A program made the translations under genes and the position numbers. A model generated the notes under the pieces. That model was not told the origin of the DNA. It was given only the letters and a program-made list of their open reading frames with translations, and searched no databases. Positions 944 through 25,771 of a stretch of DNA of 25,771 nucleotides are shown here, one piece after another (within the stretch, counting starts at the first letter, position 1; the number at the start of each line of letters is the position of its first letter). This stretch comes from Candidatus Anstonellales archaeon (GTDB taxonomy: Archaea > Micrarchaeota > Micrarchaeia > Anstonellales > SKW190), in assembly GCA_038870935.1 (NCBI GenBank), contig JAVZJF010000001.1, positions 1 to 25,771 on the forward strand. Direction: 5' to 3'.

Positions 944-1702
944 TTGGTGATTTGTTTGAAGCTTTTGTTTAAGGTTAATCCTTTCAAAAGAGAGTTGAGG
1001 ATATTTTATTCTGATGTGAGGTCATTTCTTGAAGAGAACAATGTTTCTATTGTAGAAGAACCAGAAGAGGCAGACATTCTTCTTACAATTGGTGGCGATG
1101 GTACAATTCTATATAATAGAGTAAAATATTCAAAATATGATCTACCTATATTTGGGATTGGAACTGAGACTTCATTCATTTGCCAAGCCAAAACTATTGA
1201 TTGGAAAGAGAAATTAGAGAAATTGATTAATAAAAAATATTCAATTGAATCAAGAACCCTATTAGATATTTTTGTTAATAATGAGTTTATAGCAGATTCT
1301 TTAAACGAAGCATTAATAAGAAATATTGATCCTAAAATATTGAGATTTGATGTATTAGTTAAGCATTCAGCTAGCAATTCAAATAGATTTATATTCTCAG
1401 CAGATGGTTTTATTGTAGCTACTCCTACAGGATCTTCAGCTCATGCATACGCATGTTATGCAGACATAATTGATGAAAGCACAAATTCATTGGTTTTAGT
1501 TGCAGTTGCTCCACATAGAAGAGAATTTACTCCGATGTATATTTTAAACACATCAACTATAGAAATTAATCTTTCTGATGCCGAGAATAGACATCAAAGG
1601 ATTCAATTAGTTTCTGATGGATTATGTGGCTTTAATTTATCATCAACTGACATTATTTTGATCAAAAGAAGTAAGAAAAAGCAAAAATTCATTAAAATAT
1701 GA
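944..1702 (+). CDS. nadK: NAD(+) kinase
   Basis: IGGDGT motif, LNE motif and ADGFIVATPTGSSAH (cf. DG-x-x-x-STPTGSTAY). True start may be GTG at 947. Confidence 0.9.
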   Translation: MVICLKLLFKVNPFKRELRIFYSDVRSFLEENNVSIVEEPEEADILLTIGGDGTILYNRVKYSKYDLPIFGIGTETSFICQAKTIDWKEKLEKLINKKYSIESRTLLDIFVNNEFIADSLNEALIRNIDPKILRFDVLVKHSASNSNRFIFSADGFIVATPTGSSAHAYACYADIIDESTNSLVLVAVAPHRREFTPMYILNTSTIEINLSDAENRHQRIQLVSDGLCGFNLSSTDIILIKRSKKKQKFIKI

Positions 1703-24291: not shown

Positions 24292-24720
24292 TTAGACATC
24301 GTGTGCCACATCATACACTGTTTTTACTGCGACTACTGCAACAGCTATTGATAACATTGCACTTAAGTCTAAGAAGAAGGCTTTAAACATATCTACTATA
24401 TTTGGGTTCATCATAAACGCAAACTCTACAACTTGAACTAATGCATTAAAGGTTACTAATAGAGCCAAACCACCGAGTAAAAACAACATTCTTTCGTTTT
24501 CTGTTACGTTAAAGGCTCCAACAAGAATACCGATTATAATTAAAGCAGCTAGTTTTACGTTTTTCCACAACTGATCTTGTATTGGAACTATTGCCATTAA
24601 CAAGGCCAGAATAATTCCTGCAGTAAAAGCTTTTGGGCCATAATGTACAGCTTGTTTCTTTATCTCGCCCATACCCTTTTTCAAAGTTTTTTCGGCTCCT
24701 TTGATAAGTTTCTCCACCAT
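24292..24720 (-). CDS. Small polytopic membrane protein of unknown function
   Basis: Basic amphipathic N-terminus and 3-4 hydrophobic segments, with motifs G.LVG.FNV..NE...FL and C-terminal VAVK.VYD. GGTGA SD precedes ATG 24720 (ORF track start 24732). Confidence 0.75.
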   Translation of the reverse strand: MVEKLIKGAEKTLKKGMGEIKKQAVHYGPKAFTAGIILALLMAIVPIQDQLWKNVKLAALIIIGILVGAFNVTENERMLFLLGGLALLVTFNALVQVVEFAFMMNPNIVDMFKAFFLDLSAMLSIAVAVVAVKTVYDVAHDV

Positions 24721-24871
24721 ACTTTTCACCATCCCTCTTTATAACTGGCTAAGCCATTAGTTTATAATTCATTTTGGCCTACTTTTAAATATTGCACATA
24801 AGTTGTTATATTTTTTGGATTGTTTTTCATTATAAGCTATCTTTAAAAATTTAAGTTGACAATAAATTTTT

Positions 24872-24975
24872 GCGCATGAAACAATGCGCATAGCACTTTG
24901 TTTGCCTGTGGAAGGAGCGGAGCTAGTAATAGTGTACCGCTCGCTTCCATCAACGACTTTCATAATAAATTTTTC
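24872..24975 (+). ncRNA. Candidate structured small RNA of unknown class
   Basis: 50% GC over 24871-24950 (40/80, hand count), two hairpins, TTTAAAAA box about 25 nt upstream and a T-rich stretch downstream. Confidence 0.5.
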
Positions 24976-25059
24976 TTGGGTTCTTTTGTCGAGTTTTGAT
25001 ATTCGTTTTCAATATTGTTTATAATATTATTTCTCAAACATCAACGTTAGTTGATTATT

Positions 25060-25771
25060 ATGATTACTCTTTCAACAAAGATTTATTCAAGGGAAGAAGT
25101 TGAGAAAACGCTTCACAAAACAATCATACAATGGTTAAAAAAATACAAAGAACTAACCATGCCTCAACTAATGGCTATTCCTTTAATCGAAAATAGGGAA
25201 AACGTCTTAGTAACTGCACCTACTGGTTCAGGTAAAACATTAACTGCTTTTTTGAGCATTTTAAGTTATCTCATAGAATTAGCAGAAAAAAATAATCTTG
25301 AAGATAAGGTTTATGCAGTTTATGTTAGTCCCCTACGTGCATTAAACAACGACATTGAAAAGAATTTGAAAGAACCATTAGAGGAGATGAAGCAAATTTC
25401 ATCATTTGTTGAAAAAATTAGGATTGCTGTTAGAACAGGAGATACTCCACAAAACGAAAGAACTAAAATGCTTAGGAAAGTACCTCATATTTTAATAACT
25501 ACCCCGGAATCATTTGCAATTCTTTTGAACTCAAGAAAATTTTCTAAATTTTTTAAGCCAGAATTCGTCATAATTGATGAAATACATGATTTGTGCTCTA
25601 ACAAGAGAGGTGTCCATTTATCTCTCTCTTTAGAACGACTCAACCAAAGAGTTAATTTTTGTAGAATAGGTTTGAGTGCTACAGTTCATCCTTTGGAAGA
25701 AGTGGCAAAATTTTTAGTTGGCTATGATAAAAATGGCCAATTAAGAAAATGCAAAATAATTAATGCTTCAT
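25060..25771 (+). CDS. lhr: ATP-dependent helicase Lhr (3'-truncated by window edge)
   Basis: Hand translation from ATG 25060: APTGSGKT, YVSPLRALNNDI, RTGDTP, ILITTPES, VIIDEIH, KRG..LSL.LERL, RIGLSAT. Not in the ORF track because it is truncated. Confidence 0.95.
   Translation, partial: MITLSTKIYSREEVEKTLHKTIIQWLKKYKELTMPQLMAIPLIENRENVLVTAPTGSGKTLTAFLSILSYLIELAEKNNLEDKVYAVYVSPLRALNNDIEKNLKEPLEEMKQISSFVEKIRIAVRTGDTPQNERTKMLRKVPHILITTPESFAILLNSRKFSKFFKPEFVIIDEIHDLCSNKRGVHLSLSLERLNQRVNFCRIGLSATVHPLEEVAKFLVGYDKNGQLRKCKIINAS

Follow-up and report, generated by a model that had tools for sequence, protein, structure and literature searches.

A predicted small RNA gene with its own promoter in one order of Micrarchaeota

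A folded element lies between lhr and a divergent gene for a 146-aa membrane protein in the stretch of archaeal DNA analyzed here (25,771 nucleotides, referred to below as the window). A preliminary description, made from the sequence alone, had proposed an unannotated, GC-rich, two-hairpin RNA of about 100 nt with its own promoter, either a novel sRNA or a cis-element. The locus thus raises the question of which of these the element is, and whether it belongs to any RNA class already known.

The element in the window and its closest relatives

The window corresponds to contig C1 of a genome of 1.14 Mb (G000; 30% GC, 76% complete), and a search of sequencing runs found its DNA in hot-spring metagenomes; no RNA run was among those listed, which is uninformative about expression. 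The order that holds this genome (176 GTDB genomes, with one genus of 0.5-0.6 Mb) is probably the Anstonellales as described in PMC12892359. The letters of the element are identical in two other assemblies of the strain (L108 and L109) and in contigs from two runs, one of which may be the source of the window DNA, so the element is not an assembly error. Its features are as follows.

24292-24732, minus strand: divergent gene for the 146-aa membrane protein, a neighbor only, with no Pfam family
24842-24849, plus strand: TATA box of the RNA gene, TTTAAAAA, kept in the sister species (G001)
24872-24952, plus strand: predicted RNA of about 80 nt, with its start placed by TATA spacing; the 3' end may extend to the T tract at 24970-24977
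24871-24890, plus strand: P1, the 5'-terminal hairpin, free in sequence and length but kept in structure
24893-24905, plus strand: small extra hairpin, found in the genus only, whose 3-bp stem is kept while the loop length changes
24902-24911, plus strand: linker, in which the order-wide RUG(R) comes after the family f1 motif UUGCCY
24909-24950, plus strand: main stem, with a purine-rich 5' strand (24909-24920) and a pyrimidine-rich 3' strand (24937-24950)
24919-24938, plus strand: conserved core followed by a variable cap, here GUAA at 24926-24929
24970-24977, plus strand: T-rich tract, a possible terminator, seen in the sequence; its position is not kept in G001
25018-25025, plus strand: separate TATA-like box of lhr, TTTATAAT, kept in G001; lhr starts at 25060

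Both hairpins of the preliminary description are present, the longer one (24909-24949) with a 1-nt bulge, an internal loop, and the GUAA cap, as are the T run behind them and the two TATA-like boxes, one for the RNA and one for lhr. The layout had been drawn too simply, in that the small third hairpin was overlooked, and the structured part comes to only about 80 nt. With a GC content of about 43 to 50%, the element is GC rich only relative to its 30% GC genome. The segment from 24871 to 24952 folds at -35.2 kcal/mol (z = -4.5), and none of 200 shuffled sequences was as stable. Within the core of the window copy, the pairs are G24919-C24938, G24920-C24937, G24922-U24933, and C24923-G24932, and the unpaired A24921 faces G24934, U24935, and A24936.

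G001 is the only congener of the window genome, and the RNA locus is syntenic in the two. A 40-nt block of the RNA is identical between them, while the 4-fold degenerate sites of lhr are only 50% identical. The indels that separate the two copies, one of them of 4 nt, fall within hairpin loops and would break a reading frame. The P1 loop has 6 nt in the window and is shorter in G001, and the loop of the small hairpin has 7 nt in the window and 3 nt in G001. This small hairpin is absent from three further loci (L110, L111, and L113), and the UUGCCY motif of the linker is invariant across five f1-type sequences. No separate TATA box of lhr was found in L110, where read-through from the RNA into lhr is possible. 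A 21-nt block at 24802-24818 of the window, identical in G001, probably serves the membrane-protein gene as its promoter on the minus strand.

Distribution and anatomy of the family

BLAST and a model built from two sequences gave matches in the sister species only. The contigs that carry the closest homologues of Lhr and of the membrane protein yielded three more copies of the RNA, in new gene contexts. A five-sequence model then reached other families, and the search was extended by a pattern search of 401 genomes and by a final model of 66 sequences. In total, the iterative searches collected 96 homologues, from 93 GTDB genomes and 3 metagenome contigs, which span 11 of the 12 families of the order with essentially one true copy per genome; these genomes are related, and the counts are not independent. 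Of 50 genomes sampled from the order, 44 were matched by the 66-sequence model at an E value of ≤0.1, and further families were gained afterwards. Several weak early matches (L073 to L075, L091, and L105) lay within coding DNA and were dropped. A pattern scan of metagenomes gave 17 matches, of which the best five were inspected and bore no sign of the RNA, four of them being inside open reading frames. Viral contigs gave no match.

About 100 genomes of other Micrarchaeia orders gave chance model matches only, none of them convincing, which is a nondetection and does not prove absence. Matches in two of these genomes (G343 and G226) proved to be C-terminal repeats of the thermosome plus a terminator, and no match to the RNA was found upstream of EF-1alpha in other orders. 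In five genomes of these orders (L292, L294, L295, L297, and L298), a motif approximating GHCGAHAGGCTNAAMATGRCT was observed in the EF-1alpha leader, about 90 to 200 nt upstream of the gene and beginning some 25 nt past a TATA box; it is a conserved leader or an RNA separate from the order-wide RNA. Another genome outside the order (G201; L254, positions 1470-1610, minus strand) has, in an intergenic region, a TATA box, a hairpin, and the core loop motif, the last with 45 nt inserted at the apex. This is possibly a long form of the RNA; five relatives of G201 gave no support for it.

Within the order, the genomes searched from several f9 genera, 83 to 92% complete, yielded no copy of the RNA. 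Family f10 has a conserved intergenic block (L251, 1485-1620; L340, 1503-1640) that keeps GUGGGAGGUGA, lacks the core loop, and carries a further conserved hairpin and a downstream motif; it may be a degenerate homologue of the RNA or a different element. Given these gaps in f9 and no more than a doubtful form in f10, the RNA is not essential everywhere.

The family has a common anatomy. Measured from the first base of the TATA box, the 5' hairpin begins to pair at a distance of 24 to 31 nt in 89 of 91 cases (mode, 29 nt, which is also the distance in the window), while the distance from the TATA box to the linker varies from 38 to 91 nt. In archaeal promoters, the start of transcription can be inferred from the spacing to the TATA box. 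Since the distance to the hairpin is fixed though that to the linker is not, the 5' hairpin probably marks the transcription start. Family-wide, this hairpin has a median folding energy of -7.2 kcal/mol, compared with -1.7 kcal/mol for shuffled sequences. It is followed by the RUG linker (93/96 homologues) and a main stem of 11 to 13 bp, in most cases with a single bulged base. Pyrimidines make up 68% of the 12 nt that follow the stem.

Near the top of the stem is a near-invariant 1x3 internal loop (GG-A-GC / GY-NUA-CC). Conservation counts for this core are upper bounds, because the search patterns for many of the rows demanded the loop motif: each of the two G-C pairs below the loop is found in 96/96 sequences, and the single A is found in 95/96. 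On the 3-nt side, N-U-A, the last A is kept in 95/96 and the U in 91/96, and the first base is free. Above the loop are a G-Y pair and a C-G pair, then a cap that ranges in size from 4 to about 12 nt and consists of 0 to 4 additional pairs and a loop that varies. A cUUCGg cap occurs in 32/96 sequences, and the GUAA tetraloop of the window is not conserved.

Of the cells in the 66-homologue alignment, 93.8% pair. Compensatory changes, which had been suggested as a check on the element, were found in 10 of 15 pairs (74 cells with both sides changed). None of 500 shuffled alignments reached the covariation score, and slid controls came to less than half of it. On the plus strand, G-U combinations outnumber A-C combinations by 126 to 12. 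The plus strand had been argued from the GNRA tetraloop; the strand itself is upheld by the G-U bias, and the tetraloop is a weak argument, as the loop varies freely in the family. Covariation, the fixed distance from TATA box to hairpin, and the strand bias together indicate that the element is very probably a real RNA gene with its own plus-strand promoter. In addition, the internal loop keeps its nucleotides even as stem pairs are exchanged and the cap changes, which is the pattern expected of a recognition motif.

Neighboring genes, known RNA classes, and alternative functions

The genes beside the RNA are lineage specific. They include a divergent 400-aa membrane protein (42 loci), EF-1alpha (17), UvrC (15), and NAC (15), and HAD, proteasome beta, and Lhr also occur. 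The downstream gene is on the same strand in 65 of 92 loci and convergent in the other 27, in several of these within 25 nt. Because the neighbors vary and so many are convergent, the RNA is very probably an independent gene and not a leader of lhr; of the two options first offered, the sRNA is favored and the cis-element is mostly excluded. The 400-aa protein (L138, 101-1300, minus strand, and homologues) is N-terminally anchored, has no Pfam family, and is divergent to the RNA in f8/f9 loci. The 146-aa membrane protein of the window belongs to an unnamed, four-helix-like family with homologues in 93 of the 176 genomes of the order, often adjoining the ribosomal genes for L18e and L13; the 28 loci around its best matches outside the genus held no true match to the two-sequence model.

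A cis-acting 5' leader of the downstream gene, whether riboswitch, attenuator, or uORF-containing, is accordingly quite unlikely. The same-strand majority would suit such a leader, as would f5, where uvrC starts about 20 to 40 nt after the stem, and a Shine-Dalgarno-like segment precedes an AUG in 62 of 96 sequences. The downstream genes share no pathway, however, and lhr owns a conserved TATA box in this genus. The AUG in the stem is elsewhere swapped with compensation, and the frames it opens range from 4 to more than 99 codons; a small protein gene was rejected on this range, on the AUG count, and on the 4-nt indel between the window genome and G001.

The preliminary description had found no known family to which the element could be assigned, and our searches agree. 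Rfam 15 (4,227 models) gave no match at gathering level over the RNA in the window or in 11 homologous loci, and up to an E value of 10 the window copy returned only one chance miRNA match (16.8 bits). Orphan motifs from comparative genomics such as HgcC (RF00062) of archaeal thermophiles are likewise GC-rich, structured, and intergenic, with their own promoter and no assigned function, and the RNA differs from them in matching none of these models. In a groundwater relative (L111, 3528-3661), a subthreshold HgcC match falls on a GC-rich, structured segment that lies between purC and purE. The literature that we searched holds no description of such an RNA or of possible kin; papers beyond that scope may have one.

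Individual classes were rejected on their defining features. The RNA lacks CR-I to CR-V and P4 of RNase P RNA and has no 5S rRNA match (RF00001), and both of these RNAs are encoded elsewhere in G000 to G004. Neither ARAGORN nor Rfam called a tRNA, and no GC-rich complementary partner for a tRNA half was found in the genome, which is 76% complete. Y RNA, a small stable RNA read by Ro60 at bulged stem residues, resembles what is proposed here, but the RNA has no Ro-binding consensus, and Ro60 (PF05731) was found in only one of the four RNA-positive genomes in a sample of five. That TROVE/Ro60-like protein is encoded at L303 (contig C54 of G001) and is missing from the other four genomes tested. 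The defining bases of group II intron domain 5, the kink-turn, the sarcin-ricin loop, SRP Alu UGU, T-box UGG, the MS2 operator, and the ORB box are missing as well.

Archaeal guide RNAs are similar to this RNA in size, promoter, and hairpin shape. Archaeal H/ACA RNAs and the atypical pseudouridylation guides of the Pyrobaculum type are also 60 to 90 nt long, with their own promoter, one dominant hairpin, and a motif near its apex, and the window itself encodes ribosomal L7Ae. An atypical modification guide, H/ACA-like or C/D-like, is nonetheless very unlikely. No RUGAUGA or CUGA box occurs in the 66-row alignment, ACA follows the stem in only 14/96 sequences, and the stem is fully paired without a guide pocket. 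Because the 3-nt side can begin with any base, the RNA also lacks the tandem G-A pairs of a kink-turn or K-loop. Least probable of all is an element that acts as DNA (a MITE or REP-like repeat, a replication origin box, or a protein operator). The minus strand of the window element loosely resembles an ORB box, but these letters are not kept in homologues. The single copy, the long-lived synteny within families, and the lack of matches in viral contigs also speak against it, and the G-U bias, the UUCG caps, and the fixed TATA spacing are signatures of RNA.

SRP RNA required closer comparison. The RNA itself is not an SRP RNA, as it lacks helix 8, the symmetric CAGG/AGCA loop, and the GRRA cap, and a separate SRP RNA is encoded in RNA-positive genomes including G001 to G004, G007 to G009, and G013. 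The internal loop of Methanocaldococcus jannaschii helix 6, which we take to read GG-A-GC / GU-AA-CC, is close to the core described here. According to PMC2905702, helix 6 and SRP19 were present in all archaeal subgroups known at the time, and the docking site of the bulged helix 6 adenosines in M. jannaschii is helix 8. More generally, archaeal SRP helix 6 (RF01857; M. jannaschii S domain, PMC2905702) is, like the RNA, a long hairpin with an asymmetric loop and conserved unpaired adenosines. The SRP RNAs of all Micrarchaeia genomes inspected (L028 to L032 and L305 to L333) are about 260 to 275 nt long and have no helix 6, and in most of them the apical stem of helix 8 measures 2 bp; SRP19 was over the cutoff in 0 of 80 Micrarchaeia genomes. 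The helix 8 tetraloop is enlarged by insertions of about 50 nt in two genomes, G004 and G006. In the window genome, the one SRP match does have helix 6 and lies on a contig unrelated to the SRP locus of G001; it is probably a contaminant. Contigs C113, C69, C129, C153, C215, and C219 of this genome hold duplicate tRNAs, the helix 6-containing SRP RNA, and a 16S end that differs from the one found in the order, which suggests that the bin includes foreign contigs.

These observations raise the possibility of a split SRP RNA, in which the RNA would be a detached stand-in for helix 6 and dock on helix 8 by its unpaired adenosines. We regard this as improbable, to about the same degree as a 5' leader. 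Helix 6 is missing class-wide in the SRP RNAs inspected, in orders without the RNA as in the order that has it. The Rfam consensus of helix 6 has no such loop and has a GGAG cap that the RNA lacks; a GNAR cap for SRP19 was not found either, the cap being variable and most often UUCG. Furthermore, the RNA is a separate gene, its model does not match helix 6-containing SRP RNA, and duplexes between the RNA and the SRP RNA of the same species are no better than cross-species pairs.

Somewhat less unlikely is a ribosome-binding decoy, in which a GGAGGUG segment that mimics a Shine-Dalgarno sequence would be freed from the lower stem, pair with the 3' end of 16S rRNA, and park or regulate the 30S subunit. 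The 16S rRNA of the order ends in GAUCACCUCC, and GGAGG occurs in 74/96 homologues and GGAGGUG in 45/96. In 66 in-register rows, the lower stem has invariant Gs on its 5' strand opposite partners that drift (entropy, 0 to 0.4 versus 0.8 to 1.4 bits), and one lower-stem pair is kept in only 49/66 rows, unlike the upper stem. The possible degenerate form in f10 keeps a GGAGGUG-type segment and loses the loop. Part of this strand asymmetry is accounted for by the ability of G to pair with C or U, and the pairing itself is unimpressive: the window copy pairs at -5.9 kcal/mol, no better than shuffled sequences (P of about 0.5), f1 relatives and genus g8 also pair poorly, and only 40% of rows beat their own shuffles at P < 0.05. 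The stem takes about 13 kcal/mol to open, which equals the median duplex gain, and a decoy would leave the invariant loop unexplained.

Proposed role and significance

Taken as a whole, the reading that we favor, at a probability of roughly 0.55, is that of an independently transcribed RNA gene of 60 to 90 nt, inherited through one Micrarchaeota order, whose long-hairpin loop is bound by a protein as part of a ribonucleoprotein. Fixed unpaired bases in an otherwise exchangeable helix imply that shape and sequence are recognized, and a protein is the simplest candidate for this. The primary transcript would open with the hairpin of free sequence, which may shield its 5' end, and would stop in the pyrimidine tract. 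Its working part would be the long hairpin, where a protein is predicted to read the fixed loop (the single A opposite NUA, with the flanking pairs). Some 12 bp from the loop, the RUGGGAGG segment, conserved in sequence, is probably read as well, and the stem, nearly constant in length, could keep the two at a set distance.

The RNA would thus act as a scaffold or protein ligand in a small ribonucleoprotein and, on this reading, would serve neither as a guide that base pairs nor as a template or mRNA leader. A search for a long conserved unpaired stretch of the kind needed for a guide function found none in the RNA, and the window copy shares no word of more than 15 nt with the rest of its genome, the longer of the shared words being in coding DNA. 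The neighborhood revealed no partner protein, the adjacent genes (400-aa membrane protein, EF-1alpha, NAC, UvrC, HAD, and Lhr) being unrelated.

This appears to be an undescribed RNA family of DPANN archaea that matches no RNA class tested. To our knowledge, the conserved noncoding RNAs of archaea form a short list, namely tRNA, rRNA, SRP RNA, RNase P RNA, C/D and H/ACA RNAs, and CRISPR RNAs. Judging from sequence comparison, we propose only tentatively that the family could add a new housekeeping class to them, the RNA subunit of an unrecognized ribonucleoprotein that is probably tied to translation or protein targeting and kept across a DPANN order. If so, a free-standing replacement of SRP helix 6 or a ribosome-binding RNA would be examples of such a role, and whether the family represents a new kind of machine hinges on its function. 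The alignment of 96 members pinpoints the nucleotides to mutate, and the RNA is amenable to pulldown and structural work. That most genomes of a DPANN order, though down to about 1 Mb and shedding other genes, retain a single-copy RNA gene with its own promoter and a fixed loop is a sign of an overlooked function, and reduced symbiotic archaea may use an RNA component that has so far gone unrecognized.
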